From Myxococcales bacterium (GTDB taxonomy: Bacteria; Myxococcota_A; Polyangia; Haliangiales; Haliangiaceae): a DNA stretch of 64,000 nt. Under the pieces are notes generated by a model, which saw nothing but the letters and a program-made list of their open reading frames with translations, ran no database searches and was not told the DNA's origin. The stretch spans positions 821,625 through 885,624 of the forward strand of contig JADJGV010000034.1 of assembly GCA_016707895.1 (NCBI GenBank). Direction: 5' to 3'. Shown piece after piece: positions 9,903 through 64,000 of the stretch (its first letter is position 1; each line of letters starts with the position of its first letter). The translations under genes and the position numbers were made by a program.

Positions 9903-11580
9903 CTACAGCTCGATGCCGGCGGCCAGGCACGCGCGCTTGACCTGCGCCTTGAGCCGCGGCTTCGAGACGCTGCGCAGCGCGGCCTTGGCGGCGCCGAGGT
10001 CCTGGTTCTGGCAGTAGGCCTCGGCGCGGATCGCGAACAGCACCTGCGCGCTCGGGAACTTGTTGAGCGCGGCCCGCGTGACCTGCAGCGCCGTGTCGGG
10101 GTCGCCGGCGCGCAGCGCGGCGCGGGCCTCGACCGCCGCGGCCCGGACGTCGGGCGGGTCGGCGTCGTCGTCGGCGGGCGCGCCCCCGCCAGCGTCGAGG
10201 CGCGGCGCGGGCGGGCGGGCGTCGGTGGGGCGGGCGGCGCGGGCGTCGGTGGGCGGCGCGGCGTCGGCCGGCGCGGCGCCGGCGTCGTCGAGCTCCGTCG
10301 GCGGCACCGCGAGCGCGGCGTCGCTGGTGGGCGTCGTCGGCGCGGCGTCGATCGGCGCGCTGGCCACCGCCCCGGCGTCGACCGCGGTGGCCGGCGCGGG
10401 CGTGGTCGGCTTGCCGCCACCGCCGCCGCCGAGCACCACCACCGCGGCCACCGCCGCGCCGGCCAGCACCACGACCGCGGCGACGATCACGCCGGTGCGC
10501 TTCTTCGGCGGCGCCGCCAGCGCCGGGGCCGAGGCCACGGTCTGGGCCGAGGCCACCGGCCCGGCCTTGAGCGCCTCGCGGGCCTGGCTGGCCAGCGCGC
10601 TGCCGTGATCCTCCCGAGCCGACGGTCTGCGCGAACGCGTCCTGGGTGCTCTGCTTGGTCGGCGTGGCCGGCGTCACCGCCGGCCGCACGTTGGTCGGGA
10701 TCGGCGCGCGGCCGGTGGCCAGCGGCGATCCGGTCAGCGCCTCGACGAACGCCGCGACGTCGGGCCAGCGCTCGGCGGCCTTCTTGGCCAGCGCGCGGTC
10801 GACCGCGGCCGCGGCCGCGGCCGGCACCGCCGGCGCCAGGCTCGCCACCGTCGGCGCCGGGTCGAACACCACCTTGAACACCACCTCGGGGATGGTCGCG
10901 CCGCCGAACGCCGCCTGGCCGGTCAGCATCTCGAACACCACCGCGCCCAGCGCGAACACGTCGGTGCGGCCGTCGACCTGATCGTGGCGGCCGGTCGCTT
11001 GCTCGGGCGCCATGTACTGCGGCGTGCCCAGCATCTGGGTGTCCTGGGTCTTCACCGTGTTCGAGCCGTGGATCTTCGAGATGCCGAAGTCGAGCACCTT
11101 GGCCCGCGGCGGGCCCTCGTCCTGGGGGATCAGGAAGATGTTGGCCGGCTTGAGATCGCGGTGGACGATGCCCTCGCGGTGAGCCGCGGCCAGCGCCGCG
11201 CCGACCTGGCGGATGATCGGCGCGACCTCGTCGAGCGTCATCGGCCCGCGCCGCAGCCGGTCGGCCAGCGACTCGCCGACCAGGAGCTCGAGCACCAGGT
11301 AGGGCGTGCCGTCGGGCAGCTGGTTCCAGTCGTGGACCTCGACGATGTTGGGGTGGCCGAGCCGCGACGCGATCTCCGCCTCGCGCCGGAACCGCGCCAG
11401 CGACTCGGCGTCGGCCACGTCGGGGTGCAGGACCTTGATCGCCACCTTCTTGCCCGGCAGCCGGGCGTGGCTGGCCACGAACACCGCGCCCATCCCGCCG
11501 CGCCCCAGCAGCCCCTCGACCGTGTAGGTCTCCGCGATCACGGAGCCCACATCGAGGGCGTGCGTCGGTGAATGCGCCAT
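9903..11580 (-). CDS. Membrane-anchored Ser/Thr protein kinase (kinase, Pro-rich linker, TM helix, TPR-like C-terminus); an apparent frameshift near 10605-10620 splits it across two frames
   Basis: The kinase domain is MAHSP...HRDLKPANIFL...DFGIS...GTPQYMAPE. The C-terminal part is in another frame (TGVIVAAVVVLAGAAVAAVVVL plus a TPR-like tail ending at 9903). The kinase frame itself has no stop until 9856 and reads Arg-rich nonsense. Confidence 0.65.
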
Positions 11581-18055: not shown

Positions 18056-18793
18056 CTACGGTTCGCCCTTGCGCGAGCACGTGACCTTGCCGTGGTCCGG
18101 CGATCCCTTGACCACCTGGCAGAAGTAGCCGGCGCTGCGGCCGGGGCCAGCGGCGGGAGTGTCGGGGCGCGGGCCCCAGTGCTCGCCGTCGCCTTGCAGA
18201 TCGCACCACACGCCGGTCGGTGAGGGCGGCATGCCGGCGGGGGTGTCGGCGCGACGCAGCAGGTTGCGCTGCTCCCAGCCGGTCGGCGTCGCGGTGCAGC
18301 GCACGTCGGCGGGCGCGACCCGGTTGGGCACCGGCGGCGGTGGCGGGCGACGATCGCAGACGAACACCGCCGGATCGGTGGTGCGATGGCACACCGCGGT
18401 CGGTCGGCCGCAGCCGGCGGTGTCGGCCACGACCAGCAGCGCCTCGCCGGTCGCGCAGCTCGGGCCGCCGACGCAACCACACGGACAGCTCGTCGAGTCG
18501 GCGACGCACGGCGCGCAGCCCCACGTCTGCCCGGCGCGGCACTGGCCGAGCATCGGCACCGGGCGCGGCGCCTCGGTGGGATCGGGCGTACCCGCAGCGT
18601 CGGTCGCGGTCGCGGTCGCGGTCGTCGTCGCGCCGGTCGTCGTCGCGCCGGTCGTCGTCGTGCCGGTCGTCGTCGCGCCGGTCGTCGTCGTGCCGGTCCC
18701 GCCGGCGCGCGCCAGCGGGCCGCTGGGCGGTGGCGTGCACGCGGCGAGCACGGCGGCGGAGCACAGCATCGGCCAGGCGGTGCGGAGGCGCAT
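18056..18793 (-). CDS. Cys-rich lipoprotein with an N-terminal Thr/Gly low-complexity linker
   Basis: Lipobox VLAACT. (TTTTGA)n linker encoded by 15-bp tandem DNA repeats. There are more than 20 Cys in the body. Confidence 0.6.
   Translation of the reverse strand: MRLRTAWPMLCSAAVLAACTPPPSGPLARAGGTGTTTTGATTTGTTTTGATTTGATTTATATATDAAGTPDPTEAPRPVPMLGQCRAGQTWGCAPCVADSTSCPCGCVGGPSCATGEALLVVADTAGCGRPTAVCHRTTDPAVFVCDRRPPPPPVPNRVAPADVRCTATPTGWEQRNLLRRADTPAGMPPSPTGVWCDLQGDGEHWGPRPDTPAAGPGRSAGYFCQVVKGSPDHGKVTCSRKGEP
18600..18700. repeat. Tandem ~15-bp repeat array (GCCGGTCGTCGTCGC/G) encoding the Thr-Gly linker of the lipoprotein
   Basis: About six to seven consecutive near-identical units are visible on the plus strand. 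Confidence 0.7.
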
Positions 18794-48380: not shown

Positions 48381-49703
48381 GTGCCTGTGCCCAGCTCGAT
48401 GCGTCGGAGGTGGTTCGTCGTCGTCGCCGCCGTCGCGGTGGCCGCGTGCGGCGCGGGGAGCGCGCAGCCCGACGCCACCCCGGCCGACGCCGCCCCGGAC
48501 GCCCGGGCCGCCCCCGACTACGGGCGGCTGTTCCCCACCGATCGCGTGATCGACGTCGCGCTCGACACCAGCGCCGCCGACTGGGCGGCGCTGATGGCCG
48601 ACCCGCTCAACGACGCGCTGCAGATCCCGGCCACGGTCACCTACGACGGCGCGGTCGTCACCCAGGTCAGCCTCAGCACCAAGGGCAACTCGTCGCGCAA
48701 CTCGGTCCGCGCGATGGGCTCGCAGCGCTACAGCTTCAAGCTCGACCTCGACGAGCGGGTGCCGGGGCAGCGGCTGTTCGGCGTCGACAAGCTCAACCTG
48801 CACAACTCGTTCAAGGACCCGACGCTGCTGCGCGAGACGATCGGCTACGCGATGATGCAGGGCGCCGGGGTCCCGGCCAGCCGCACGGCGTTCGCGCGCC
48901 TCACGATCAACGGCCAGCCGTGGGGCCTCTACGTCGTGGTCGAGCAGGTCGAGGCCGACTTCCTGCGCGACCGGTTCGGCGCCGCCGACGGTGAGCTGCT
49001 CAAGCCCGACCAGCCGTCGGGGCCGCTGACCCTCCGCGGCGCGACCTTCGCCGACTACCCGGGCGTCGAGGTGAAGCTCGACGGCGGCGACCCGACGCAC
49101 CAGCGGTTCCTCGATCTGATCGCGGCGCTCGATCACGGCACCGAGGCCGAGGTGGCGGCGGTGCTCGACGTCGATCGCCTGCTGCCGTGGCTGGCGATCA
49201 ACACGTACCTGGCCAACCTCGACAGCTACGCCGGCAGCGCCCACAACTACTACCTGTACCTGGACCCGGCCAGCGCGCGCTGGATCCTCGTGCCCTGGGA
49301 TCTCAACGAGACCTTCGGCAACTTCCGCTGCGGCTGGACCGCGGCGAACATCGTCGCGCTCGATCACCTGCGGCCGCAGTGCAACCAGCCGGCGCCGCGG
49401 CCGCTGATCAGCAAGGTGCTGGCGTCGCCCACCTGGCGCGCGCGCTACCAGGCGCTGCTGCGCGACCTGATCGCCGGCCCCGGGGCGCCGACCGCGGTGC
49501 GGATCGACGTCGACGCCCGCGCCGCGCTGATCCGCGACGCGGTCGCGGCCGATCCGACCAAGTTCTTCACGCTGGCGCAGTTCGACACGGCGATCCACGA
49601 CGACCTGCCGGTCACCAACCAGCCCGGCCTCGACTCCGCGATCCTCGGGCTGACCGCGTTCGCCGAACGGCGCGCCGCCGCGCTCGCGACGCAGCTGCCG
49701 TAG
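48381..49703 (+). CDS. CotH-family (spore-coat-protein-H-like kinase fold) lipoprotein
   Basis: Lipobox VAVAACGA. The family-like core is FKLDLDE...KLNLHNSFKDPTLLRE...YLANLDSY...HNYYLY. Confidence 0.75.
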   Translation: MPVPSSMRRRWFVVVAAVAVAACGAGSAQPDATPADAAPDARAAPDYGRLFPTDRVIDVALDTSAADWAALMADPLNDALQIPATVTYDGAVVTQVSLSTKGNSSRNSVRAMGSQRYSFKLDLDERVPGQRLFGVDKLNLHNSFKDPTLLRETIGYAMMQGAGVPASRTAFARLTINGQPWGLYVVVEQVEADFLRDRFGAADGELLKPDQPSGPLTLRGATFADYPGVEVKLDGGDPTHQRFLDLIAALDHGTEAEVAAVLDVDRLLPWLAINTYLANLDSYAGSAHNYYLYLDPASARWILVPWDLNETFGNFRCGWTAANIVALDHLRPQCNQPAPRPLISKVLASPTWRARYQALLRDLIAGPGAPTAVRIDVDARAALIRDAVAADPTKFFTLAQFDTAIHDDLPVTNQPGLDSAILGLTAFAERRAAALATQLP

Positions 49704-49730
49704 CCCACCGCTGGCCTCGCAGGCCGCGCG

Positions 49731-50552
49731 TCAGGGCAGGAAGGCCGCGGGCCCCTGCGCGATCAGCAGGTCGAACTCGGCGCCGCGCAGCGCGCGGTCG
49801 AACACCGCGGCCTCGTCGATCAGGCCGAGCAGCGTCCCGAGATCGGAGAGGCCGCCCGTGAAGTTGGCCGCGCCGATCGAGAGCCCGGACTCGGCCTTGC
49901 CATCGTTGTGGACGTGGGTGTGCTCGTCGAACCTGTTGACGTCGTGGCTGCCCGAGTACTGGCCGGCGGTCGCGCCCGGCGCCGGGTCGACGAACACGTC
50001 CAGCGTGTCGCTGGCCGCCACGTAGGTCGCGATCACCTGGTGCCAGTTGCCGTCGTCGATCGCGACGTCGGTGTGCGGGTTGCTGACCCAGCCGCTGTCC
50101 CACTGCACCGTCTGGCTGCGCACGAACATCGCCTTCGAACCCTGGTTCCACGCGGTCCCGGCGGGGTTGCGCGAGAACAGCGCGCCCGACGACGACGACG
50201 TGCGCACGTAGACGTGCCAGGTGAAGTCGGCGTTGAAGTCGAACCCGGCCGGCGCGCCGACGTCGAAGCGGTCCCCCGCGGTGCCGAGCCGCAGGGCCTC
50301 GCCGCGGCGTCCGGACCCGCCGGTGCTGATCCGGGCGGCGCCGACCAGCGTCCCGGCGTGGGGGCCGACCAGATCGCGGCCATCGACGTCGAAGCTCCAG
50401 TAGCCGGCGGGTGGATCGAACGCCGGGCCGGCGTCGACGTCGCGCGCGGCGCCGTCGATGGCGCCGCTGTCGACCGCGCCGACCTCGGAGCCGCCGGCTG
50501 GTGTGAAGCTGCAGCCGGTGACCAGCCCGAGGAGCACGCACGAGCGCCACAT
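49731..50552 (-). CDS. LamG/concanavalin-A-like lectin-fold lipoprotein
   Basis: Lipobox LGLVTGCS. Motifs are typical of LamG jelly-roll proteins (FTWHVYVRT...GNWHQVIATY). Confidence 0.65.
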   Translation of the reverse strand: MWRSCVLLGLVTGCSFTPAGGSEVGAVDSGAIDGAARDVDAGPAFDPPAGYWSFDVDGRDLVGPHAGTLVGAARISTGGSGRRGEALRLGTAGDRFDVGAPAGFDFNADFTWHVYVRTSSSSGALFSRNPAGTAWNQGSKAMFVRSQTVQWDSGWVSNPHTDVAIDDGNWHQVIATYVAASDTLDVFVDPAPGATAGQYSGSHDVNRFDEHTHVHNDGKAESGLSIGAANFTGGLSDLGTLLGLIDEAAVFDRALRGAEFDLLIAQGPAAFLP

Positions 50553-50633
50553 GGTCGACCAGTGTAGCGCGGGCGCGGGCGCGGAGATCAATGGCGTCGC
50601 CGCTCCGGCGGTGGCGACGCGGGCGAGGGCGGT

Positions 50634-50963
50634 TCAGTCGAAGATGTCCCACCACGACCGCTTGCGACCCGGGTAGCGGCCGCGGTCGTCGTCGTCGTCG
50701 TCGTCGCGGCGGCGCCGGCGGTCGTCGTCGTCGCGCCGGCGGTCGTCGTCGTCGTCGTCGCGGTGGGCCGGGCCGGCCGCGGCGCGCGGCGGGGCGTCGC
50801 GGAGGTCGCGGGGGCCGGCCTCGGCGTCCCGGGCGCGCGCGAGCAGCTTCTCGAGCTCGCCGCGATCGAGCCAGATGCCGCGGCAGCGGTCGCAGCGGTC
50901 GATCGTGACGCCGTCGCGGTCGAGCTCGAGCAGCGGTGCGTCGTGGCAGCGGGGACAGTTCAT
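50634..50963 (-). CDS. zf-TFIIB-type zinc-ribbon protein with a highly charged D/R-rich tail
   Basis: MNCPRCHDAPL...VTIDRCDRCRGIWLDRGELEKL. The tail is poly-D/R. Confidence 0.7.
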   Translation of the reverse strand: MNCPRCHDAPLLELDRDGVTIDRCDRCRGIWLDRGELEKLLARARDAEAGPRDLRDAPPRAAAGPAHRDDDDDDRRRDDDDRRRRRDDDDDDDRGRYPGRKRSWWDIFD

Positions 50964-51199
50964 CGACTTCTCCTGGTGGGCGGGCGCGGCCGCCGGGGCG
51001 GCGCGTCGGGCGTGGGCCGTGGTGGACATGCCCTCAACCTGGGGCGCCCGCGGCCCTTCGTCGAATCGAAAGTTCGCATCGGAGAGTGTGAGAAAAACGA
51101 CACGACGTTCCATCCGCGGACGGCCGCCGCCCGGGCCCGTGATCTCGGAGACTTGCGCGTCGGCTGTCACACCTGGCCGGCGCGCGACTCCACCTGTGC

Positions 51200-52405
51200 A
51201 TGGAGACCTCGGCCCGGCAGTCACGCGATCAGGAGACCGGCGGCGCGGAGCAAGAGGCGGCGTTCGCCAACGGGAACGCCGAGCGGCCAGCGGCGCCGGC
51301 GGCGCTCGAGGCCCGCGCCATCCTGGCCGGCGGCGGCGGCGCCAAGGCGCTGGCCGCGCTGCTCCACCAGCACCCCGATCAGCGCGAGCCGATCGTCGCC
51401 GAGATCCAGCAGCACCCGGCCGGCGGCAACGCGGTCTGCGGCGAGGTGCTCGAGGAGATGGCGGTGCCCAAGGGCCCCGAGCCGCTGCTGCGCGTCGGGT
51501 CCCGCGGCGAGCCGGTGGTGCGCCTGCAGCAGGGCCTCATCAAGCACGGCGCGACGATCAGCGCCGACGGCGCGTTCGGCCCGCAGACCGCCGGCGCGGT
51601 GATGGCGTTCCAGCTCCAGAACGACCTGGTCGCCGACGGGATCGTCGGGCCCAAGACCTGGGGCGCCCTCGACGGCGCGCCGGCCGCCGAGCAGCAGGCC
51701 GAGCCCAAGGCGCCGGCGGCCGAGCCGGTGCAGGACGAGCACCCCGCGCCCACCACGCCGACGCCGACGACGACCCCGGGCACCGGCGCGGGCGGCGCCA
51801 CGACCGCGGGCGACAAGTACCGCGAGCAGTACGTCTCGCAGCTGCTCTACTTCGAGGGCGCGCAGGAGGGCGACGCGAAGTTCGAGTCGATCATGTCGCA
51901 CGAGGGCCTCGAGGCGCAGCGCAAGGCGGCCGACGGCAAGACCTTCAGCACCTGCAACTCGTTCTCGGGGATCATGCAGACGATGGCCGAGCAGAAGTCG
52001 GGCGTGAAGATGAAGGCCAAGATCAACCTGTACGTGATGGACCCCAAGTGGCGCGAGAAGAACCTGCCCGAGGGCGCGTTCCACCCGGGCGGCGGCGGCG
52101 ACCGGCCCAAGCCGGGCGACATCCTGATCTTCTCGCAGCTCGACGGGCGGACCTTCGCGCACATGGGCAACTTCATCGAGGGCCCGATCGCCACCGACGA
52201 CGGGCTCGAGGAGTGGCAGTGCATCGACGGCGGCCAGGGCCAGGCCGGCAAGTACGTCGACGGCGTCTGCGTGCAGCAGGGGCACGAGATGATCGGCCGC
52301 ACCCACATCAAGTACAACCCGGCCAACAACCAGACCGTCCCCAAGTGGGGCAACCCGCGGATGGTCTACGGCTGGGTCGACATCGCGATGCTCGCCGCCG
52401 AGTGA
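51200..52405 (+). CDS. Peptidoglycan-binding (PG_binding_1) domain protein with a C-terminal Cys/His-containing domain (candidate cell-wall hydrolase/effector); no signal peptide
   Basis: PG-binding motif LRVGSRGEPVVRLQQGLIKHGATISADGAFGPQTAGAVMAFQ. It is followed by a PT-rich linker and a domain with TCNSFSG...FAHMGNF...CIDGG. Confidence 0.65.
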   Translation: METSARQSRDQETGGAEQEAAFANGNAERPAAPAALEARAILAGGGGAKALAALLHQHPDQREPIVAEIQQHPAGGNAVCGEVLEEMAVPKGPEPLLRVGSRGEPVVRLQQGLIKHGATISADGAFGPQTAGAVMAFQLQNDLVADGIVGPKTWGALDGAPAAEQQAEPKAPAAEPVQDEHPAPTTPTPTTTPGTGAGGATTAGDKYREQYVSQLLYFEGAQEGDAKFESIMSHEGLEAQRKAADGKTFSTCNSFSGIMQTMAEQKSGVKMKAKINLYVMDPKWREKNLPEGAFHPGGGGDRPKPGDILIFSQLDGRTFAHMGNFIEGPIATDDGLEEWQCIDGGQGQAGKYVDGVCVQQGHEMIGRTHIKYNPANNQTVPKWGNPRMVYGWVDIAMLAAE

Positions 52406-52427
52406 CGGCCGCGACCGGGTTGCCGCC

Positions 52428-52697
52428 TCAGGGCTCGACGGGCTCGAGGTCGCACTGCGCCCGACAGCGCGCGTCGACCTCGTCGTACTCGCCGTCCTCG
52501 GTCATCAGGCAATCCTCGAGGCAGCGCAGCGCCTCCTGGTACACGGGGTCGGGAGGCTCCTCGGGCTTGGGCGTGGCCGAGGCGGCCGGGGCCGAGGCGG
52601 GCGGCGCCGCCGCCGCCGGCGCGGGCGTCGCGGTCGGCGCCGGCGCACCACCGCACGCGATCACCAGCACGAGCGCGAGCGTCGAGGTTCGGATCAT
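52428..52697 (-). CDS. Small lipoprotein with a Cys-rich acidic C-terminus
   Basis: Lipobox LVIACGG. Four Cys lie in the last 35 aa. Confidence 0.55.
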   Translation of the reverse strand: MIRTSTLALVLVIACGGAPAPTATPAPAAAAPPASAPAASATPKPEEPPDPVYQEALRCLEDCLMTEDGEYDEVDARCRAQCDLEPVEP

Positions 52698-52761
52698 CGC
52701 CCCATCGTAGGGGATCTCGGACCGGCGTGGCGGAGATCGCGGTGACGGCGGCGGCCCACCA

Positions 52762-53142
52762 TCAGCCCCGGCTGGCGATCCAGATCAGGTAGTCGCGCAG
52801 TCGCGCCCAGTACAGGCGGCGCACCCGGGGCAGGCGGCGCAAGAGCGGTGGCTGGCAGCGCGGGTTGAGCCACATCGCGGTGGCGCGCCCGGGCACCTCG
52901 GCGAACCGCGCGCGGGCGTCGGCGACCAGGCGATCGATCAGCAGGTCGACGTCGATCACGTCGGCGGCGCGGCGCAGCAGCGCGCCCTCGAGCCGATGGT
53001 CGGCGAGCCCGATGGCGGCGCAGTACGAGCGCACGCCGTCGTCCGAGATCGCCGCCGGGCGCGCGGCGTCGCGCAGCCGTCGCCCGAGCGTCCACAGCGT
53101 CCGATCGACGTCGGCAGGGAGAGACGCAGATTGAGCCAGCAT
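52762..53142 (-). CDS. Hypothetical protein
   Basis: The start is at MLAQSAS. It is divergent from arr. Confidence 0.45.
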   Translation of the reverse strand: MLAQSASLPADVDRTLWTLGRRLRDAARPAAISDDGVRSYCAAIGLADHRLEGALLRRAADVIDVDLLIDRLVADARARFAEVPGRATAMWLNPRCQPPLLRRLPRVRRLYWARLRDYLIWIASRG

Positions 53143-53254
53143 GCCTGAGGTCGTTTCAACCGGCGTGCCAGTCTGCAAGTCGCCGTCGCGACACGCGCGC
53201 GCCGCGCGCCGCCGTTGCCAAACGCAACCGTCGACGTCGACCGCGGACCGTAGG

Positions 53255-53716
53255 ATGCTCGACGCGATGAGCACCACCGCCCCGGCGCCGGTCCCGTTCG
53301 AGGTGTGGACCGACACCGACGGCGCGCCGCGCTACCTCCACGGGACCAAGGCCGCGCTCGCGCCTGGCGAGCTGATCGAGCCCGGTCGCGCCTCGAACTT
53401 CGGCAAGCGATCGGCCGCCGCGTTCGTCTACCTGACCGCGACGCTCGACGCCGCGACCTGGGGCGCCGAGCTGGCGATCGGCGACGGCCCCGGCCGCATC
53501 TACATCGTCGAGCCGACCGGGCCGATCGAGGACGATCCCAACCTCACCGACCAGAAGTTCCCCGGCAACCCCACGCGCTCGTACCGGTCGCGGGCGCCGC
53601 TGCGGGTCGTCGCCGAGCTCCGCGACTGGCGCGGCCACGCCCCCGCACAGCTCGAGGCCATGCGGGCGGGGCTGGCGCGCCTGGCGGCGCAGGGGATCGA
53701 GGCGATCGAGGACTGA
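53255..53716 (+). CDS. arr: NAD(+)--rifampin ADP-ribosyltransferase (Arr)
   Basis: Arr-family signature YLHGTKA.L.PGELIEPG..SNF...........VYLTATLDAATWGAELA.GDG.GRIYIVEPTGPIEDDPNLTDQKFPGNPTRSYRS..PLRVV over ~140 aa. The alternative start is 53267. Confidence 0.85.
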   Translation: MLDAMSTTAPAPVPFEVWTDTDGAPRYLHGTKAALAPGELIEPGRASNFGKRSAAAFVYLTATLDAATWGAELAIGDGPGRIYIVEPTGPIEDDPNLTDQKFPGNPTRSYRSRAPLRVVAELRDWRGHAPAQLEAMRAGLARLAAQGIEAIED

Positions 53717-53875
53717 CGCGCGGGCCGACCGCCGCCCGCCGGGCGACCACGTCGGGCGGCCACCTGGGTAGCCGGGGTGGTGGCGAGTGGCCTGTTCGCC
53801 GACATCGCGGCGCGGGCTAACCCCGCGACGTCACACCTCCGGGGTGATGGCACCGCACGTGCAAAGGGCCGGCCC

Positions 53876-55846
53876 ATGATGAGAATCACTGGGTGGCTCG
53901 CCCTGAGCCTTGGGATGACGTTGGTCGCGGCTTGTGACACGGCGGATGACGATCCGCTGGATGGGATCGACGACACCTTCGTGAGCGACGGCAAGACCGA
54001 CGTCGCTGGCGTCGAGGACAAGTCGCCGGCGGCGTGCGCGCTGCTCCGGGTCGCGCGCGAGGCCAGCTTCGACGAGCTCGACGACGACGTCCGCTTGAAC
54101 GCCAAGGCGGCGCGGGCGATCGTCGCGGCGCGCGAGGACGACTTCCTGCCGACCCTGGCCGCGCTCGACGCGGTTCGGTACATCGGCCCGGCGGCGGTCC
54201 GCCGGCTCGACACGTACGCCAAGGCCCACTCGGCCTACGCGTGTGGCAGCCAGCAGGTCCAGGTCCTCGCCACCAACGACTTCCACGGCAACCTCAAGCC
54301 GCCGTCCGGCTCGAGCGGCCGCATCACGACCGCGGTCGGGACGCCGCCGACCACCGTCGACGCGGGCGGCGCCGAGTACCTGGCCACGCACCTGGCCGCG
54401 CTGCGCGCCACCAACCCGCAGACCGTGACGGTCGCGGCCGGCGACGTCATCGGCGCGACGCCGCTGATCTCGGCGCTGTTCCATGACGAGCCCACGATCG
54501 AGTCGATGAACGCGGCCGGCCTCGACGTGGCTGGCGTCGGCAACCACGAGTTCGACGAGGGGCCCGACGAGCTGCTGCGCATGGCCTACGGGGGCTGCCA
54601 CCCGACCGACGGTTGCCAGGACGGCGACGCCTTCGCCGGCGCGTCGTTTGGCTACCTCGCGGCCAACGTGGTCGTCGATGACAGCGGCGAGACGCTGTTC
54701 CCGCCGTACGAGATCCGCGCCTTCCGCGCCGCGCGGGTCGCCTTCATCGGCCTCACCCTCGAGGGCACGCCGAACATCGTCACCCCTGCCGGCGTGGCCG
54801 GCCTCAGCTTCACGGACGAGATCCAGACCGTCAACGCGCTGGTGCCCGAGCTCAAGCGGCAGGGCGTCGAGACCATCGTCGTGCTCTTGCACGAGGGTGG
54901 CTTCGCGACCGGGCTCTACAACGAGTGCGCCGGCATCTCCGGGCCGGTGTTCGACATCGCCCGCGGGTTCGATCCCGAGGTCGACGTGGTCGTGGCCGGC
55001 CACACCAACGCCGCCCACCTGTGCGACATCGACGGCAAGCTCGTGACCAGCGCGGCGTCGTTCGGCCGACTCATCACCGACATCGACCTGACCATCGACG
55101 AGGTGACCGGCGAGGTGAGCGCCAAGACCGCGCAGAACGTCATCGTCACCCGCACGGTGGCCAAGGACGCCGCCCAGACCGCCCTCATCACCAAGTACGA
55201 CACGCTGGTGGCGCCGCTCGCCAACCGGGTGGTCGGCACGATCACCGGCGACCTCACGCGCCTCGCCAACGCCGCCGGCGAGTCGCTGATGGGCGACGTC
55301 ATCGCCGACGCCCAGCTCGCGGCGACCCGCGCGCCGGCCCAGGGCGCCTCGGTCCTGGCGCTGATGAACCCCGGCGGCGTGCGCGCCGACCTCACGGTCG
55401 CGCAGATCACCGGCGGCGAGCAGCCCGGGCAGATCACCTACGGTGAGGCCTTCACGGTGCAGCCGTTCGGCAACGCGGTCGTCAGCATGTCGATCACCGG
55501 CGCCGAGCTCGACGCGGTCCTCGAGCAGCAGTGGACGCTGGTCGGCGGCGTGCGTCGCGTGGCGATGCTCGCGCCGTCGGCGGGCCTGACCTACACCTGG
55601 ACCGCGGCCAGCGCGGACGGCGACAAGGTCAGCGACATCCGGCTCGCCGGCGTCCCGATCGACCCCGCGGCCCGCTACCGGATCACCGTCAACAGCTTCC
55701 TCGCCGACGGTGGCGACGGGTTCACCGTCCTCAAGCAGGGCATCGACCGGATCGGCGGCGAGGTCGATCTCGACGCCCTCACCGCCTACCTCACCGCCAC
55801 CTCGCCGCTGGCCCCGCCTACGCTCGGCCGCATCACGATGCGCTGA
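53876..55846 (+). CDS. Lipoprotein 5'-nucleotidase/metallophosphoesterase (UshA-like) with an N-terminal ComEA-like HhH domain
   Basis: Lipobox MTLVAACD. The HhH is AREASFDELDDDVRLNAKAARAIVAAR. Metallophosphatase motifs are NDFHG, GNHEFD and GH.H. The C-terminal domain is the 5'-NT type. Confidence 0.85.
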   Translation: MMRITGWLALSLGMTLVAACDTADDDPLDGIDDTFVSDGKTDVAGVEDKSPAACALLRVAREASFDELDDDVRLNAKAARAIVAAREDDFLPTLAALDAVRYIGPAAVRRLDTYAKAHSAYACGSQQVQVLATNDFHGNLKPPSGSSGRITTAVGTPPTTVDAGGAEYLATHLAALRATNPQTVTVAAGDVIGATPLISALFHDEPTIESMNAAGLDVAGVGNHEFDEGPDELLRMAYGGCHPTDGCQDGDAFAGASFGYLAANVVVDDSGETLFPPYEIRAFRAARVAFIGLTLEGTPNIVTPAGVAGLSFTDEIQTVNALVPELKRQGVETIVVLLHEGGFATGLYNECAGISGPVFDIARGFDPEVDVVVAGHTNAAHLCDIDGKLVTSAASFGRLITDIDLTIDEVTGEVSAKTAQNVIVTRTVAKDAAQTALITKYDTLVAPLANRVVGTITGDLTRLANAAGESLMGDVIADAQLAATRAPAQGASVLALMNPGGVRADLTVAQITGGEQPGQITYGEAFTVQPFGNAVVSMSITGAELDAVLEQQWTLVGGVRRVAMLAPSAGLTYTWTAASADGDKVSDIRLAGVPIDPAARYRITVNSFLADGGDGFTVLKQGIDRIGGEVDLDALTAYLTATSPLAPPTLGRITMR

Positions 55847-55855
55847 GTCGCGCGA

Positions 55856-56251
55856 TCAGCGGCCGCGGCCGTCGAACGACCAGCGCCCAGCGCCGCGGGC
55901 GGCGATGAACAGCAGCACGAAGCAGTACAGCGCCGCGAGCTCGCCGTGGTTGACCGCCGGCAGCCACTTCCAGTCGGCGAACTGGCCCTTGTGGTGGAAC
56001 TGGAAGTAGGCCACCGCCATCGTGCCCGAGCCGAGCAGCGCGGCGAGGCGGGTGCCCAGGCCGATCGCGATCAGCGCGCCCGCGACCAGCTCGATCACGC
56101 CGCCGATCCACAGCTGGCTGCCGAACGCCGGCGTGGGCCTGGTGGTCAGCCAGCCGAACACCTTCTGCAGGCCGTGGCAGGTGAACATCGCGCCGGCGAC
56201 GATCCGCAGCGCGGCGTAGGCCGGGTCCTCGAGCTTGGCGAGCATGCGCAT
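55856..56251 (-). CDS. DoxX-family membrane protein
   Basis: Four TM helices. The N-terminus LRIVAGAMFTCHGLQK is typical of DoxX. Confidence 0.75.
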   Translation of the reverse strand: MRMLAKLEDPAYAALRIVAGAMFTCHGLQKVFGWLTTRPTPAFGSQLWIGGVIELVAGALIAIGLGTRLAALLGSGTMAVAYFQFHHKGQFADWKWLPAVNHGELAALYCFVLLFIAARGAGRWSFDGRGR

Positions 56252-56270
56252 CGCGGCAGTGGAGCACGTC

Positions 56271-56524
56271 TCGGCGCGCGCGCATCCGGCGCCGCGCGCT
56301 GTGTAGACTGCGCGTCACGGCCGAGCCCATCGATCGCGTGACGCTGTTCGTGCCTGGCGTCCCACCGGACGCGTCGCTCCAGCTCGGCGATCAGATCGCG
56401 CACGAGTGGGTCGCCAACGACGGCCGCTGCGCCGACGCGTTCCGGTGCGCAGCCGCGGCTACGTCGATCTCGAGCCCGAGCTGGCGTGGGAACAGTGGCA
56501 GCTGGTGCGCGACCGGCCCGGGTG
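56271..56524 (+). pseudogene. Internally deleted, diverged remnant of the hypothetical gene at 58621..59529 (5' ~185 bp including upstream leader joined to last ~70 bp; ATG mutated to ACG)
   Basis: Direct nucleotide similarity: 56271-56455 matches 58572-58757 and 56456-56524 matches 59455-59529. The start codon is lost. Confidence 0.7.
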
Positions 56525-56670
56525 ACCGCGCGCCTCAGGCGCCGCCGTCGCGCGGCGCCACCGACAGCCGACGGGGGGAGGGCTCATTGGAACGGGACCG
56601 AGCGGGGGAGGGCGATCATGGCGTCTCCCGTCACGTGACGCGCGCCCCGCGGCGGTTCACGGAGATCGGC

Positions 56671-58437
56671 TCAGCGCGCGAGCATGCCGTCGATCGCGAT
56701 GCCCACGCCGGCCAGGCTCTCGCCGGCGATCAGCCCGGCCGCGGCCACCACCAGGAACCGCGTGCTCCAGCGCGGGGTCACCCGCTCGCAGGTCGCCGCG
56801 ACCACCGCGCCGAAGCACATCGAGATCGCGTTGTACGCGGGCAGCACGAAGGCGAGGCCCAGCGCCGACGGGCTCGGCACCCACCGGCGGGCGCGCGCCG
56901 GCAGCGTCCGCTCGGCGATCGCCAGCGCGCTCCCGGCGGCGCCCGCGATCAGGATCGCCCAGCCCGCGCCGCCAGGCATCGCGTGGAAGCCCTGCTTGAA
57001 GACCTCGGCCACCGCCTTCCACGTCGCGACGGCCGGCGCCGGCCACTCCTCGGTGAGCAGCATGGTCTGCGGATCGGGGATCAAGATCAGGTAGGCGGCG
57101 CTGCCGATGCACGCGCCGGCCAGCGCGCCCATCACCTGAGCCAGCGCCTGGTAACGCGGCATCGCCCCCAGCAGGTAGCCGGTCTTCAGGTCGTGGAGCA
57201 GATCGGCGCACTGGCTGGCGGCGCCGCCGGTGACGTTGGCGGCCATCAGGTTGGGCGCGACCTGGCCGGGCGCGAGCGCCCCGAACAGGAGCTGGGTCAC
57301 TTTGCCCATCGCGCCGATCGGCGTGACGTTGGTCTCGCCGGCCACGCGGCCCGCGACGATCGCGAGCACGAACGACACCAGCACGCCCAGCACCGCGATC
57401 GGCCAGAAGATGTCGAACAGCGCGACCTGCAGCAGCACCGAGAGCACCAGCGCGACCGCGGCGCCGCGCAGCCACCAGGTCCGGCTGACCTCGCCCGTGT
57501 CCTCCGTCGACCCGCCGCCCTGGGTCCGCCGGAACGCCCCCGCGATCGAGCGCCACGAGAACGCGAACGAGGTCAGCGCCGAGGTCACCATCATCGCGAC
57601 GCCGGGCCACAAGAGCCACTTGTTGAGCGGGATGAACCAGGCCGCGTCTGGCGCGCCCGCGACCGCCCAGCCCTCACCCAGCGCGATCGGCGCGAGCACG
57701 ACGTACGCGACGATCGCGCCGAGCAGCAGCGACAGCCCGGCGCGCAGGCCGATCAGCCCGCCGATGCCCACCATCAGCAGGTTCGGCTCGACCGCGAGCG
57801 TCAGGTTGCCCGCCGAGACGCTGCCGGCCGCGCCGGCGTAGCGGCCCGGCAACGCGACCTTCCCCACCAGCTTCAGGTGCTCGGCGACCTTCACCGCGGC
57901 GGCCAGCGCGCCGGCGCCGACCAGCATCCACACCCGCGCCACCGCCTCCTTGCCCGACGCGTACATCTCCTTCAGCGTCTCGGCCGAGGCGATGCCGCTG
58001 GGGAACGGCAGCCGATCGACCAGCAACATCTGGCGCCGCAGCCCGATCGCGACGACGATCCCGACGCAGCACACCGAGAACGTCCACAGCGCCAGCAGCG
58101 GCCACGACAGCGACGTGCCGTCGAGCAAGGTCAGCGCGGGGATCGGCGCGACCAGGCCGGCCGACGAGATCGCCGCGCCGGCCGACGCCGCGGTCTGGTT
58201 GAGGTTGTTCTCCAGCATCGTGAACGGGGCCATCGGCCGCACCGCGCTCATCGCCCGCCAGAACGCGAACCCGAGCAGGGCCGCGGTGACCGACATGTTG
58301 TTGCTCCAGCCGATCTTCAGGCCGCTGTACAGGTTGCACAGCGACAGCAGCCCGCCGAGGACCATGCCGGTCGCGACCGCGCGCACGGTGAGTTGCCGCA
58401 TCGTCCGGTCGAGCGGCGCGGGCTGGAGGGATGCCAT
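56671..58437 (-). CDS. OPT-family oligopeptide transporter
   Basis: Length is 589 aa with about 15-16 TM helices. OPT-typical blocks (NLYSGLKIGWSNNMSV, GETNVTPIGAMGKVTQL). Confidence 0.8.
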   Translation of the reverse strand: MASLQPAPLDRTMRQLTVRAVATGMVLGGLLSLCNLYSGLKIGWSNNMSVTAALLGFAFWRAMSAVRPMAPFTMLENNLNQTAASAGAAISSAGLVAPIPALTLLDGTSLSWPLLALWTFSVCCVGIVVAIGLRRQMLLVDRLPFPSGIASAETLKEMYASGKEAVARVWMLVGAGALAAAVKVAEHLKLVGKVALPGRYAGAAGSVSAGNLTLAVEPNLLMVGIGGLIGLRAGLSLLLGAIVAYVVLAPIALGEGWAVAGAPDAAWFIPLNKWLLWPGVAMMVTSALTSFAFSWRSIAGAFRRTQGGGSTEDTGEVSRTWWLRGAAVALVLSVLLQVALFDIFWPIAVLGVLVSFVLAIVAGRVAGETNVTPIGAMGKVTQLLFGALAPGQVAPNLMAANVTGGAASQCADLLHDLKTGYLLGAMPRYQALAQVMGALAGACIGSAAYLILIPDPQTMLLTEEWPAPAVATWKAVAEVFKQGFHAMPGGAGWAILIAGAAGSALAIAERTLPARARRWVPSPSALGLAFVLPAYNAISMCFGAVVAATCERVTPRWSTRFLVVAAAGLIAGESLAGVGIAIDGMLAR

Positions 58438-58620
58438 GCTGTCAGGTATCACGTCGCGCGCCGTGGTCGCAGTGGCCAGGCGCGCTCCCCTGGTCTCGTT
58501 GTTGATCGCGACCGCGTGTGCCTCGACGGCGCCCCGGGCGGTAAGCCGGCGGCGTCGGTCGCGGCACGTCGCGGCGCGCGCGCACGCTTCCGCTGCCGCG
58601 CGCTGTGTAGACTGCGCGCC

Positions 58621-59529
58621 ATGGCCGAGCCCATCGACCGCGTGACCCTGTTCGTGCCTGGCGTCCCACCGGACGCGTCGCTCCAGCTCGGCGATCAGGT
58701 CGCGCACGAGTGGGTCGCCAACGATGGCCGCTTCGCCGACGCGTTCCGGTTCGGGACGGTCGAGCCCGACGTGCTGGCGCGGCTCGCCGTGACGCCCGGC
58801 GCGGTCGTCGTCTCCGCCCGCGTCGACCTGCGCGAGGGCCGGGAGGCGTTGATCGCCGCGGTCGAGCGCTTGCGCGACGCCGGCGCGATCGCGGTGCGGC
58901 TCGAGGAGTCGATGCTCGGCTGGGACGTCGCGCGCTGGCTCGAGCTGGTGTCGTCTCCGTCGCCGTGGGACTGGCACCGCGCCGCGGTCGTCGTGCTGTC
59001 TGGCGACGGCGCGCTGCAGTCGTGCGGCATGCACGCGTTCTCGCTGCCCGACGTGCGCATCGAGCTCGATGGCGATCGGGCCGCGCTGCAGGAGCTCGCC
59101 GAGACGCTCAACGTGTACCAGCTGGCCGAGGACCCGGTGCTCCGGTCAGGGCAGACGTTCCGCCCCGACGACGAGGCGCCGCGGCGCGTCGTCGAGCGGT
59201 GGCCCGACGTCGTGTACCCGCCGGGCCACGCTTGCCACAACCCGTACGGCGTCTGGCGGCTCGGCCCACCTGGTGGCGCCGGGCGGGGCGTCGGCGAGCT
59301 GGTGCCGGTCTTCGTCCCGGCGCTCGCCGCCGTCCTCGGCGCGCTCGAGGCGCAGCACGGCCAGCCGCTGACCGAGGCGCAGGTGCTCGAGGCCCGCGAC
59401 CGCGGCGCGTGCATCATGATGGAGCCGCGCGACGCGCAGCGGCTGGAGCGATCGCGTGGCTACGTCGACCTCGAGCCCGAGCTCGCGTGGGAGCAGTGGC
59501 AGCTGCTGCGCGGCGCCGGCGAAGGCTAG
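58621..59529 (+). CDS. Hypothetical protein (302 aa), intact copy of the duplicated gene
   Basis: Clean frame MAEPIDRVTLFVPGVPPDASLQLGDQVAHEW... Its 5' and 3' ends are duplicated at 56271..56524. Confidence 0.6.
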   Translation: MAEPIDRVTLFVPGVPPDASLQLGDQVAHEWVANDGRFADAFRFGTVEPDVLARLAVTPGAVVVSARVDLREGREALIAAVERLRDAGAIAVRLEESMLGWDVARWLELVSSPSPWDWHRAAVVVLSGDGALQSCGMHAFSLPDVRIELDGDRAALQELAETLNVYQLAEDPVLRSGQTFRPDDEAPRRVVERWPDVVYPPGHACHNPYGVWRLGPPGGAGRGVGELVPVFVPALAAVLGALEAQHGQPLTEAQVLEARDRGACIMMEPRDAQRLERSRGYVDLEPELAWEQWQLLRGAGEG

Positions 59530-59769
59530 GGCCACGCCCGGGGGCTACGGGCTCTCCGCCCTGGGCGCGCGCAGGTATGCGGCCTGGAGCGCCGCCGCCA
59601 GCTCGACGTGCTCCGGGTTGGCGGGGGCGGTCGGATCGAAGGGGCCCTGGGTCCTGCCGGCGCCGACGTCCGTGGTGGTGCCGTGGACGAACACCTGGAC
59701 GAAGTCGAGGTTGTCCCGCCGTCGGGCCTCACGCCAGCGTATCGTGCGGGGCCGCGCCGGGCCCGGCGT

Positions 59770-59905
59770 GCGCGCCGCGATCGAACACGCCGCGCGGCGG
59801 ATCAGTTCGGCATGCAACGCGACGCCGAAGCCGGTGGCGCGGTCCTTGGGGACCGCCGGGCCGGCCAGGTCGACGTGGCGCCAGCGGCGGCCGGCGGTCG
59901 CGCCG
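59770..59905 (-). repeat. Diverged (~90% identical) copy of the last ~38 codons plus ~25 bp downstream flank of pepA (62516..62655); the stop codon is mutated
   Basis: Nucleotide alignment to the pepA 3' end. The translation is DEFGATAGRRWRHVDLAGPAVPKDRATGFGVALHAELIRRAA. A third short copy lies at 60527..60560. Confidence 0.75.
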
Positions 59906-59911
59906 AACTCG

Positions 59912-60502
59912 TCACGACGACGTGACCTCGCCCTCGGCGTCGAGGAAGTACGCGTTGCCGGCCTGGACGATGAAGCTGCCCTCGTCGATCCAGTCGCGCA
60001 CGGCCTCGAGATCCTCGGGCGAGGCATCCGGATTCGCGCCCACGGCGTCGTCGTGCAAGTGGAACGGGAACGGCACCACGGCGTAGTGCCACAGGTCGGG
60101 GTGGATGAACGCGAGCATCGGCGCGCTCCCGACGTGGAGAAAGCCGATCTCGTCGGACAGCAGGTCGAGCAGCGCCTCGCCGTCGTCGAGCAGCTCGGCG
60201 TCGGCGTGGATCGCGCGCGCCGTCACCGTACCGTCGCGGTGGGACACGACGACGTTGAGCGGGGCCTGGTCGATGCCGGACAGCCGCGGCACGCCGACGA
60301 AGACGAGCGTCGGCAGGCCGTCGCCGCTCGCGCCGGCGAGCCATCCGTAGGCCTCGCTCGTCTGCACCAGGTAGCGCCGCGCCGGATCGACGAACTGCGC
60401 CACGGTGGCGACGTCCATGCCGAGCCGCTGCGCGATCGCCGGTGCGTCGTACGCGCGCAGGTCGAGCTTCTCGAGGAACGCCTTGTCGAGAAACCAGGTC
60501 AC
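59912..60502 (-). CDS. Hypothetical protein (196 aa)
   Basis: Clean frame MTWFLDKAFLEKLDLRAYDAPAIAQRLGMD... It is flanked by pepA-3' fragments. Confidence 0.55.
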   Translation of the reverse strand: MTWFLDKAFLEKLDLRAYDAPAIAQRLGMDVATVAQFVDPARRYLVQTSEAYGWLAGASGDGLPTLVFVGVPRLSGIDQAPLNVVVSHRDGTVTARAIHADAELLDDGEALLDLLSDEIGFLHVGSAPMLAFIHPDLWHYAVVPFPFHLHDDAVGANPDASPEDLEAVRDWIDEGSFIVQAGNAYFLDAEGEVTSS

Positions 60503-60764
60503 GAACGGAGTCTAGAACGCGGGTCGCGCGATCGCGCCGCGCGGCGGACCAATTCGGCGAGCCGCCGCAGCCGATGCGCGTGTCGGTCCCGCAGCCGGGC
60601 CGCGAGCTTCTCGGTGTGCGGTCGAGCTCGTCGTCGGTGTGGATCGTCGCGATCGCGCACCGGCGCCGTGGTCGCGACCGAGGTCATGGCGGCGGCGGCG
60701 AGCTGCCCGAGCTTCGCGATGGTCCGCGGCGGCGAGTCCAGCACGTCGGTGTCGACCGACGACG

Positions 60765-61397
60765 TCAACCGGCGGGTGGCGCGGCGGCTCGCCCGAGGTA
60801 GCGCACGACGAGCTCGATGAGCTCGGCGCGGAAGCCGGGCTCGTCGAGCAACGCCGGCTCGTCGACCACCGCCGCCTCGATGACCCGCTCGACCGCGTGG
60901 ACCGCGATCCACGCCATCAGCCCGTGGGGGCCGGGCCGGACGTCGTCGCGGCGGGTCATCGCGGCCGCGACCTCGCGGCGCACGGTGCGGTCGACCTCGT
61001 CGCTGACCGGCGCGGTCCAGCTCGGCGGCACCTGGCGGCGGATCGCCTGGCGCAGGCCGATGCCCCCCAGCTCGCCGAGCAGCGCGTCGATGATGCGGCC
61101 GGCCACCTCGGCCAGCGGCGCGTCGCCGGCGGTGACCAGGATCTGGACCGCCAGCGCCTCGGTGCGGCGCTCCAGCCGGCGGGCCAGCTCGGCGAGCAGC
61201 GCGTCCTTGTTGGGGAAGTACTGGTACAGCGAGCCGATGCTGACGCCGGCGCGCTCGGCGACCTGGTTGGTCGTGAAGCCGTCGAGGCCGCGCTCGTCGA
61301 GGACCTGGCTGGCGGCGGCGAGGACCGACTCGATGATGTCGGCGCCGGCGCGGGTGGACGGCGGCTTGCGGGGCGCGATCCGGCGGTCGCGAGGCAC
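60765..61397 (-). CDS. TetR-family transcriptional regulator
   Basis: HTH FTTNQVAERAGVSIGSLYQYFPNKDALL. It is divergent from a lipoprotein gene. Confidence 0.8.
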   Translation of the reverse strand: MPRDRRIAPRKPPSTRAGADIIESVLAAASQVLDERGLDGFTTNQVAERAGVSIGSLYQYFPNKDALLAELARRLERRTEALAVQILVTAGDAPLAEVAGRIIDALLGELGGIGLRQAIRRQVPPSWTAPVSDEVDRTVRREVAAAMTRRDDVRPGPHGLMAWIAVHAVERVIEAAVVDEPALLDEPGFRAELIELVVRYLGRAAAPPAG

Positions 61398-61413
61398 GGG
61401 GCGATGGTGCCAC

Positions 61414-61447
61414 GACCGGCGGCGCGCCGCGACCGGCGGCGCGCCGC
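61414..61447. promoter_or_regulatory. Tandem 17-bp direct repeat GACCGGCGGCGCGCCGC x2, each with the 12-bp perfect palindrome GCGGCGCGCCGC, in the divergent TetR/lipoprotein intergenic region (candidate operator); a third copy lies at 62519..62539
   Basis: The repeats are visible directly. The same unit recurs between the convergent ends of 61481..62497 and pepA. Confidence 0.45.
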
Positions 61448-61480
61448 GCCTGCTGCCCGTGGGGCGTGGTACCAGTCGTC

Positions 61481-62497
61481 ATGCGCGTTGCTCTGATCTG
61501 TTTGATGGTCGCGAGCGCGTGCGCCTCGACCGCGTCCCGCGGGACGACGGCGCCGCCGCCGACCCCTCGTCTCGATGTCACGACTGCGCCTCACGAGCCG
61601 GTCGCGCCGCCGTCGCCGTCGCCGCCGCCACCGCCACCGCCGATCGCCGAGGCGCCGGCCTGGGATGCGCCGCCGCCACGGCCGCACGTGGTCGCCGTCC
61701 TCGCCCAGGTCCCCGCGGCTGCGCGGTTCGTCGCCGGGCTCGACGCGGCGCGGCTCGTGCGCGGCCCACTCGCCAGCCGGTTCCAGGGCATGCTGGCCAT
61801 GGTCGGCGTGATGATGCCCGCCGCCTGCGGTGCGGTGACGCTGAGCCAGTTCGACCAGGTGGTCATGGCCGGCGTCGGCACCAAGGGCGATCACGTGGTG
61901 TTCCTGGGGCCGAAATTCGCGGAGCGGAGCACTGCGGATTGCCTGACGGCCGCGACGATGGGGCGCAACGGCGTGACCGTGAAGCGCCGGAAGGCGTTCG
62001 GGACCACCGTGTACTTCGAGGCGGGACCGCAAGCCACCGGCGGCGCGCTCGCCTGGAGCAAGGGCTCGGGGCCGATCGTGGCGGACCACGAGCCGTGGCT
62101 GGCGGCCGCGCTCGATCCCAAGGCGGCCAAGGCCGAGCCCGAGTTGGTCGCCCTGGCCAGCAGCGTCGATCACGGGCGGACGTTGTGGCTCGCCGCGCTG
62201 CTGTCCGAGCAAGACGTGGCCGGCCTCGGCGCGCCGCCGGGGACGTTCAGCGGGCCGTTCGCGTTGCGCCTCGGCGTCGACATCGACGGCGAGGCTGACA
62301 TCGACGTCGATCTAGTGTTCGCGTCCGAGGCCACCGCGGCGCAGGCCGCGGACTACCTGCGCAGCCAGTTCGCCCCGATGCAAGCCGACGGCGGCACGCG
62401 CGTGAGTCTGGGGGTGCACGGCGCCGAGGTGCGGCTGATCCTGCGCTTCGATGCCGCCAGCGTGCAGCGGTTCCTGGCGATGCTGCCCGCGAGCTGA
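61481..62497 (+). CDS. Hypothetical lipoprotein
   Basis: Lipobox LMVASACAS. A Pro-rich linker is followed by a globular domain. Confidence 0.6.
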   Translation: MRVALICLMVASACASTASRGTTAPPPTPRLDVTTAPHEPVAPPSPSPPPPPPPIAEAPAWDAPPPRPHVVAVLAQVPAAARFVAGLDAARLVRGPLASRFQGMLAMVGVMMPAACGAVTLSQFDQVVMAGVGTKGDHVVFLGPKFAERSTADCLTAATMGRNGVTVKRRKAFGTTVYFEAGPQATGGALAWSKGSGPIVADHEPWLAAALDPKAAKAEPELVALASSVDHGRTLWLAALLSEQDVAGLGAPPGTFSGPFALRLGVDIDGEADIDVDLVFASEATAAQAADYLRSQFAPMQADGGTRVSLGVHGAEVRLILRFDAASVQRFLAMLPAS

Positions 62498-62541
62498 GCG
62501 GCGCCGGCGCGCTCGCGCGACCGGCGGCGCGCCGCGACCGA

Positions 62542-63996
<1,455 letters not shown>

Positions 63997-64000
63997 GGCG

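Follow-up and report, generated by a model that had tools for sequence, protein, structure and literature searches.

A probable relic of a resident DUF4261-related gene, and a diverged intact copy, on either side of an oligopeptide transporter gene in a Kofleriaceae bacterium

A stretch of 64,000 nucleotides (nt) from a Myxococcales bacterium (GenBank assembly GCA_016707895.1, contig JADJGV010000034.1, positions 821,625 to 885,624), hereafter called the window, carries two unequal copies of a DUF4261-related gene, one short and one intact with 302 amino acids (aa), and between them lies a minus-strand gene for an OPT-family oligopeptide transporter. The short copy is, with good probability, a pseudogene relic of a resident gene and not a degraded duplicate of its intact neighbour. 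It occupies the position at which relatives carry the full-length gene, and outside one converted block its sequence is closer to the gene of the nearest relative than to the intact copy 2.3 kb away. In the following, X is the family of the 302-aa gene, X1 the copy beside a DoxX gene, X2 the intact copy, Y a 338-aa terpene synthase gene and OPT the transporter gene; contigs of other assemblies are given by L numbers.

The exact 302-aa X2 protein is encoded on four public contigs and is annotated as belonging to a Kofleriaceae bacterium MAG (metagenome-assembled genome). Two forms of the X1 remnant were observed in this species, each in three assemblies: the type A scar in the window, L069 (GCA_964269055.1, 373 kb) and L079, and the type B scar in L055, L076 (GCA_943370995.1) and L077. 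L069 is 99.94% identical to window positions 48620-64000 and L079 is 99.8% identical to the window, so the type A scar, which is present in both as well as in the window, is not an assembly artefact. The type B strains are ~98% identical to the window.

Position and affinity of the short copy

In L001 (Myxococcales MAG-81), the nearest other lineage, the minus-strand DoxX gene is followed by a spacer of 69 bp and then by a full-length plus-strand X, a convergent Y beginning 9 nt past the X stop codon, and the 3' end of OPT. The same order of DoxX, X and Y was observed on the short contigs L073 and L074, and DoxX followed by X on L075, where the contig finishes at the X stop; in all four relatives X is full-length and stands beside DoxX in divergent orientation with a spacer of 63-70 bp. 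On the other side, Y begins 52 nt past the OPT stop codon in L080, whose OPT is 95% identical, and OPT orthologues adjoin Y and/or DoxX in L001, L080 and L056. Taken together, the DoxX/X/Y and OPT/Y orders in L001, L073, L074, L075 and L080 indicate that the ancestral order is DoxX(-), X(+), Y(-), OPT(-). As the short copy is found at the syntenic position beside DoxX, it would be the resident X1 in its original place.

The window aligns to L001 in three blocks, namely 55849-56444 (92.4%), 56444-56571 (96.9%, L001 3584-3711) and 56574-56677 (92.4%, L001 4646-4749), and is without L001 2888-3583, which is 697 bp within X, and L001 3712-4645, which is 934 bp within Y. The identity of Y as a terpene synthase gene follows from the L001 copy, which matches Pfam Terpene_syn_C_2 (PF19086) at 1.2e-22 with 81.1 bits (cut-off 23.7) and in which the DDWLD and NDLYSWPKE motifs are readable. 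In the window, about 15 N-terminal and 10 C-terminal codons of Y are left and ~934 bp between them are gone; the Y 3' relic is convergent with the X1 relic, and 9 nt separate the two stop codons.

The identities of the relic segments point to the same relationship. For calibration, the DoxX gene is identical at 370/388 nt (95.4%) between the window and L001. The 3' relic of the window is identical to X1 of L001 at 74/76 positions and to X2 at 53/58; the middle relic of type B at 152/159 and 130/157, respectively; and the 5' relic of type B at 103/105 and 91/104. Outside a converted block, which is described below, the X1 relics are 96-98% identical to X of L001 and 83-91% identical to X2. The 5' piece of the window, which includes the block, is identical to X2 at 125/131 positions and to L001 at 117/126. 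When the short copy was aligned to L001 and X2 with MAFFT, its 3' half was misplaced; BLAST coordinates and direct reading were used. The short copy therefore shows the features by which a pseudogene is recognised, that is, homology to an intact gene, a disabled start and frame, an intact syntenic orthologue, and lesions that differ by lineage. After a recent local duplication the two copies would be mutually closest, and they are not: outside the converted block the relics are nearer to X of L001, and X2 is sister to the whole X1 clade.

The repeats within the window were located with a repeat finder and by self-BLAST of the 64 kb. Positions 56264-56449 match 58564-58753 over 190 columns at 92.1% (E=1e-74; 176 nt ungapped at 93%), and positions 56454-56511 match 59455-59512 over 58 nt at 91.4% (E=1e-16); both matches are far beyond chance for a 64 kb window, which answers the question of background similarity raised by the initial annotation of this DNA. 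The first match consists of the 57 nt X2 leader plus the initial 130 nt of the X2 coding sequence, and the second is the 3' end of X2, stopping 17 nt short of the stop codon. The start codon is ACG at 56317-56319 in the short copy and ATG at 58621 in X2. The 5' piece is offset by 2304 nt (3n) and the 3' piece by 3001 nt (3n+1); relative to the long gene only the 5' piece has therefore kept its frame, and the 697-bp deletion is frame-shifting. What the initial annotation had described was thus recovered: two copies in direct orientation flanking the minus-strand OPT were found by both searches, with borders that differ by only ~8 nt, and the internal deletion of the short copy and the change of ATG to ACG were seen in sequence and translation. 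Its value of ~85% for the 3' segment is reached only by counting the 17 nt that precede the stop codon of the short copy, which do not align to X2 and do align to the L001 orthologue; otherwise the value is the 91.4% given above.

A plus-strand open frame of 1063 aa (56338-59529) runs from a GTG inside the X1 relic, antisense through all of OPT, to the X2 stop codon. It is in frame with both the X1 relic and X2 because the offset of 2304 is a multiple of 3, and it is almost certainly a by-product of the guanine-cytosine (GC) content of 74% and no gene. Weak dispersed repeats between 50652-50826 and both 10127-10290 and 18601-18711 (70-80% over 84-176 nt) are unrelated.

X2 sequence has been copied into the type A relic by ectopic gene conversion. 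The 5' relic of the window is X2-type at 8/8 diagnostic sites from nt 39 to nt 64 of the coding sequence (CDS) and X1-type at sites 18, 27 and 105, and the type B relic is X1-type at all sites of the same table. The tract is 26-77 nt long, and by our own count the chance of the eight sites being contiguous is 4/165. The tract accounts for the 5' repeat being nearer to X2 than to L001 and shows that pairing between the two copies has occurred at least once. A caveat that concerns L073 is given with the points that weigh against our reading.

Alternative scars and the decay of X1 and Y

In the type B relic, the ATG is intact and an in-frame fusion at a CGACG microhomology links X1 codons 1-35 with codons 184-241; the relic then joins directly to the start of Y, and the TAGACT box of the leader is lost. 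A third scar was observed in L056 (DoxX and OPT about 88%), where ~33 nt of leader and ~50 nt of the X 3' end are followed by the OPT stop codon. Types A and B each keep parts that the other lacks, so neither can be derived from the other, and X1 must still have been largely intact when the haplotypes separated.

The TAGACT box is present in all intact X genes (L001, L073-L075 and the X2 leaders) and ends 8 nt before the start codon, which is ATG or GTG. This spacing leaves no room for a ribosome-binding site, and there is no Shine-Dalgarno sequence. The conservation of the element suggests that TAGACT is the -10 element of a leaderless mRNA; no promoter was found in a scan with the sigma-70 consensus, and an Rfam search of 55800-59950 returned nothing. 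The ATG is gone from type A and the TAGACT box from type B, two independent ways of silencing X1.

A probable order of events is as follows. The ancestor of this Kofleriaceae group would have carried DoxX(-), X1(+), Y(-) and OPT(-), and X2 would have split from the X1 lineage before the sampled X1 orthologues split from one another. The X2 unit is 950 bp long: it takes in the 57-nt leader, which contains the probable leaderless-mRNA box TAGACT, and the coding sequence as far as 17 nt short of the stop codon. Once X2 supplied the function, X1 and Y would have decayed, with redundancy as the presumed cause. In type A the lesions are the 697-bp frame-shifting deletion of X1, the ~934-bp deletion of Y, the change of ATG to ACG and a small deletion in the leader; in type B they are an in-frame deletion that joins aa 35 to aa 184, another deletion, which extends from aa 241 into the beginning of Y, and the loss of the TAGACT box. 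Pseudogene decay of this sort, following presumed redundancy, is ordinary, and the relics, although well documented through the population variants and the conversion tract, are of a well-known kind.

Origin of X2 and rival explanations

Over the full length, the nucleotide identity of X2 to four X1 genes is 85-87%, and that of the X1 genes among themselves is 88-94%; in a neighbour-joining tree X2 is sister to the four-member X1 clade. Against five outgroup proteins, X2 has identities of 70, 70, 69, 66 and 66% and X1 of L001 has 70, 66, 69, 62 and 65%. The values of X2 are no lower than those of X1, so X2 is not accelerated and a fast-evolving recent copy is excluded. Homology of the X2 leader begins at a position that, at the X1 locus, is equivalent to 12 nt from the DoxX start codon, and homology between X2 and X1 stops at 59512, the final 5-6 codons of X2 being unrelated to X1. 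X2-type proteins form one cluster at >=90% identity among 5.8 billion proteins, with X1-type proteins as the next-best matches, and the full-length cluster members with examined contigs (window/L069-L072, L076, L077 and L079) have the same gene order and 98-99.9% nucleotide identity. A 76-aa member of the cluster (P0122, on a 1.74 Mb contig) was considered as a possible relic and proved to be just the C-terminal part of X2. Upstream of OPT, X2 is absent in L056, L081 and L082/L083, where the neighbours are unrelated; in L084, which carries an orthologue of the downstream 196-aa gene, no X2 was found within ~600 bp of it, and a single X locus was found in MAG-81, MAGs being incomplete. X2, found only in this species, would accordingly be either an older paralogue lost elsewhere or a xenologue, and not the parent of the short copy.

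The initial annotation had explained the repeats by a local duplication of 58621-59529 across OPT, followed by internal deletion and loss of the start in the new copy. The direct orientation and the distance of 2.3 kb agree with a duplication, as do the 92-93% identity of the 5' repeat, leader included, to the intact gene and the excess of X2 matches in the 5' piece. However, this excess lies in one block of eight clustered sites whose flanking sites 18, 27 and 105 are X1-type; the 3' piece, with its last 17 nt and the downstream DNA, is 96.9% identical to L001 and has no X2 alignment past 56511; four relatives carry an intact X at the position of the short copy; and the type B relic, from the same species, shares 95.6-98% identity with L001 and 83-88% with X2. 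Synteny and the identities of the relics to L001 argue that the duplication model is largely refuted, and it is held to be very improbable. The direct repeats (176 nt at 93% and 58 nt at 91%, around OPT) had also been taken to provide for excision or amplification of OPT, and the conversion tract does indicate that they have paired at least once, but a single OPT is found in each of the six assemblies of the species that cover the interval, and OPT stands in the same place in the repeat-free relatives L001, L080 and L056, so a comparison of its presence in relatives, which had been proposed as a check, came out against mobility. Homologous recombination is strongly reduced between repeats as short as these and with 7-9% divergence, and no excision or copy-number variant of OPT was found among the six assemblies and the relatives, these being assemblies and not reads; a working module that excises or amplifies OPT in the population is therefore scarcely credible. 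Least of all can the short copy or its 109-aa type B version be regarded as a functional small gene. Type B does retain its ATG, its fusion is in frame, and the gene calls of two assemblies contain it as a 109-aa open reading frame (ORF), but types A and B keep different parts of X1, type A is frameshifted and without ATG, type B is without the TAGACT box and its ORF continues into the antisense of the Y start, and no such short protein was found among the best 120 of 320 homologues or in the X2 cluster at >=90%. An independent small gene conserved across relatives, which the initial annotation had named as the alternative, does not agree with the full-length X of the relatives at this place or with scars that differ among strains.

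With regard to the source of X2, a variant of the preferred reading takes it to be a xenologue from a Kofleriaceae lineage ~12-15% diverged, inserted upstream of OPT by illegitimate recombination and displacing X1. This is a serious possibility, although its probability is put at somewhat below even. It agrees with the place of X2 outside the whole X1 clade without acceleration, with the lack of an X2-type orthologue in other lineages while X1-type genes were sampled from four, with the lack of X2 upstream of OPT in L056, L081 and L082 and beside the 196-aa gene in L084, and with a copy that ends within coding sequence and is flanked by unrelated gene fragments. On the other hand, the GC content is flat across the region (0.72-0.77) and gives no compositional sign of a foreign X2, the gene calls contain no mobile-element gene nearby, the sampled lineages include no donor, and an old duplication within the genome followed by loss elsewhere fits the same tree.

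Several observations weigh against the reading of the short copy as a resident gene that decayed next to X2. Each identity carries a wide error because the relic segments measure just 76-159 nt, and the case is made by the agreement of the identities and by synteny. The X1 of L073 has 5/8 of the "X2-type" states, and the converted block may in part be old polymorphism. Redundancy is a presumed cause of the decay, and in L056 both X1 and Y are gone without any X2 seen in the vicinity. The L001 contig ends inside OPT and L080 has 25 bp upstream of it, so that absence of X2 in the L001-like lineage is not demonstrable. Finally, the Y deletions of types A and B have right-hand ends no more than ~3 nt apart, at the G-run GGGGGAGGGG (56571-56585, the first Y codons), a coincidence that would not be expected for two fully independent deletions. 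Either both types share one Y deletion, with a later leftward deletion in type B through the similarity of GCCGCGG and GCCGACGG, or the G-run is a deletion hotspot. A joint reading of these facts, which we consider unlikely, is that the X1-Y pair, a DUF4261/SUFU-like Cys/His protein with a terpene synthase, was destroyed independently at least three times among close relatives, while in this species an X was kept beside OPT: the loss of Y would have been selected, or a function of X tied to DoxX or OPT (metal- or peptide-related) would have been kept by foreign-allele replacement in situ, with GGGGGAGGGG as a sequence-specific deletion hotspot.

Gene products, neighbourhood and known systems

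The coordinates of the features are shown in Table 1.

Table 1. Features of the X1-OPT-X2 locus in window coordinates
Feature	Coordinates	Strand	Remarks
DoxX gene	55856..56251	-	Pfam DoxX 9.9e-12; divergent neighbour of X1
X1 leader relic	56264..56316	+	Repeat of 58564-58620; TAGACT box 56304-56309; 4-5 nt deletion, one unique substitution
X1 5' relic	56317..56446	+	Codons 1-43 plus one base; start ACG; CDS nt 39-64 (56355-56380) X2-type
X1 3' relic	56447..56525	+	Last ~26 codons and TGA 56523-56525; junction 56446/56447
Y 3' relic	56535..56571	-	~12 codons, stop 56535-56537; tblastn: Y aa 328-337 at 56570-56541
Y 5' relic	56574..56619	-	~15 codons, ATG 56619-56617; tblastn: Y aa 1-15 at 56619-56575
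OPT-family oligopeptide transporter gene	56671..58437	-	Intact; Pfam OPT 3.3e-95; TIGR00728 226.8 bits
X2 leader	58564..58620	+	Repeat of X1 leader; TAGACT box 58608-58613
X2	58621..59529	+	Intact 302-aa DUF4261-related gene
DNA between X2 and pepA fragment	59545..59762		No Pfam match
pepA 3'-end fragment	59763..59905	-	aa 446-484 and ~21 nt downstream; duplicates 62521-62662

The X2 protein scored 25.8 bits against DUF4261 (PF14080), below the cut-off of 27 and with a third of the protein covered, and DUF4261 was matched at E<0.01 by 50/53 X homologues, the best at 2.8e-9. An AlphaFold model of X2 built from the 53 homologues had a predicted local distance difference test score (pLDDT) of 95.8 and a predicted template modelling score (pTM) of 0.91, which makes the predicted fold very confident. 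A sequence profile search of the PDB with X gave nothing, Foldseek against the PDB gave nothing significant, and no account of function was found in a literature search on DUF4261. In the family alignment C135, H138, Y199 and W212 are invariant and H203, C205 and H206 nearly so, and the motifs SCGMHxFSxPD and HxCHNPxGVWR are invariant; these conserved Cys and His residues suggest a predicted metal or catalytic site. The distribution of X is patchy, with members in Kofleriaceae/Haliangiales, Micromonosporaceae, a Nocardioides (59% identity) and Planctomycetota. A pairing of X with a terpene synthase gene was sought at 53 more distant X loci and none was found, so a general functional link between X and Y cannot be claimed.

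For OPT, the matches were 320.5 bits to Pfam PF03169 (cut-off 25.8), 226.8 bits to TIGR00728 (cut-off 128.35) and 118.8 bits to the equivalog TIGR00733, which is under its cut-off of 182.5, so membership is assigned at superfamily level only. OPT is a stable, vertically inherited gene and not mobile cargo. No transposase was present in the L069 gene calls, and the repeats are pieces of the DUF4261-related gene and not an insertion sequence or composite transposon.

The variable parts of the neighbourhood are the X1-Y pair, X2, the DNA just past X2 and, in L056, a 5'-nucleotidase block. This agrees with the earlier description of the region as scarred by recombination, to which the gutted terpene synthase gene, the pepA 3' fragment and indels between strains all contribute. 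In L056, DNA matching window 53266-52762 lies within ~70 bp of DoxX (L056 2611-3181); the 689-aa 5'-nucleotidase/metallophosphoesterase gene (53777-55846; indel 53267-55850) is present in the species of the window and absent from L056. The pepA (M17 aminopeptidase) fragment lies between X2 and the 196-aa gene, with 91.6% identity over 143 nt and 92% over 39 aa by tblastn, and a third, weaker copy of the pepA end (60519-60585; 78.6% over 67-70 nt) is found just upstream of the 196-aa gene. An alignment over 68 nt of the fragment persists in L084, a lineage ~15% diverged, indicating that the fragment is old. In type B strains ~95 bp are missing at window 59595-59806 (L076 6975-7089) and a further ~80 bp differ; the ~95-bp deletion breaks a 90-aa ORF on the minus strand (59545-59817) found among the gene calls of type A assemblies, and this ORF is therefore probably not a gene.

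In annotation, the proper label for 56264-56619 is that of two pseudogene relics, of X1 and of the terpene synthase gene, instead of a small gene, and the 109-aa ORF called in sister strains is not a gene. The locus offers a clean natural example of a resident gene decaying once a second copy is available, with two decay paths in one species and a conversion tract; beyond these points of annotation and evolution, the understanding of such systems is unchanged.

Among known systems, polymorphic toxin systems have been proposed to use SUFU-like domains as immunity proteins (Zhang et al. 2011, PMC3113570; 2012, PMC3482391). X differs in its invariant Cys/His motifs, which were not found described for those proteins, and no toxin gene stands beside it, the neighbours being DoxX, the terpene synthase gene, OPT and unannotated small genes; in view of the lack of an adjacent toxin gene, X is not filed with the SUFU-type immunity proteins. 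The locus resembles xenologous or paralogous gene displacement in having a divergent intact homologue with its own putative promoter near a decaying resident, in one species among those sampled, but here no donor or mobile element was identified, and transfer and old duplication both fit. Short-tract ectopic gene conversion is resembled by the eight paralogue-type sites in 26 nt between orthologue-type flanks, with a donor 2.3 kb away in the same orientation and no tract in the sister haplotype; here, however, the recipient is a dead relic, so that the event is without functional consequence, and the block is partly present in the orthologue of L073. The closest likeness is to the pseudogenes of bacteria that decay by deletion, with which the short copy shares homology to an intact gene, a lost start, a frame-shifting deletion, a syntenic position and strain-specific lesions. 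It differs from them in that the survivor is an older-diverged copy 2.3 kb away and not a recent duplicate of the relic, that the adjacent terpene synthase gene decayed as well, and that two alternative scars segregate in one species.

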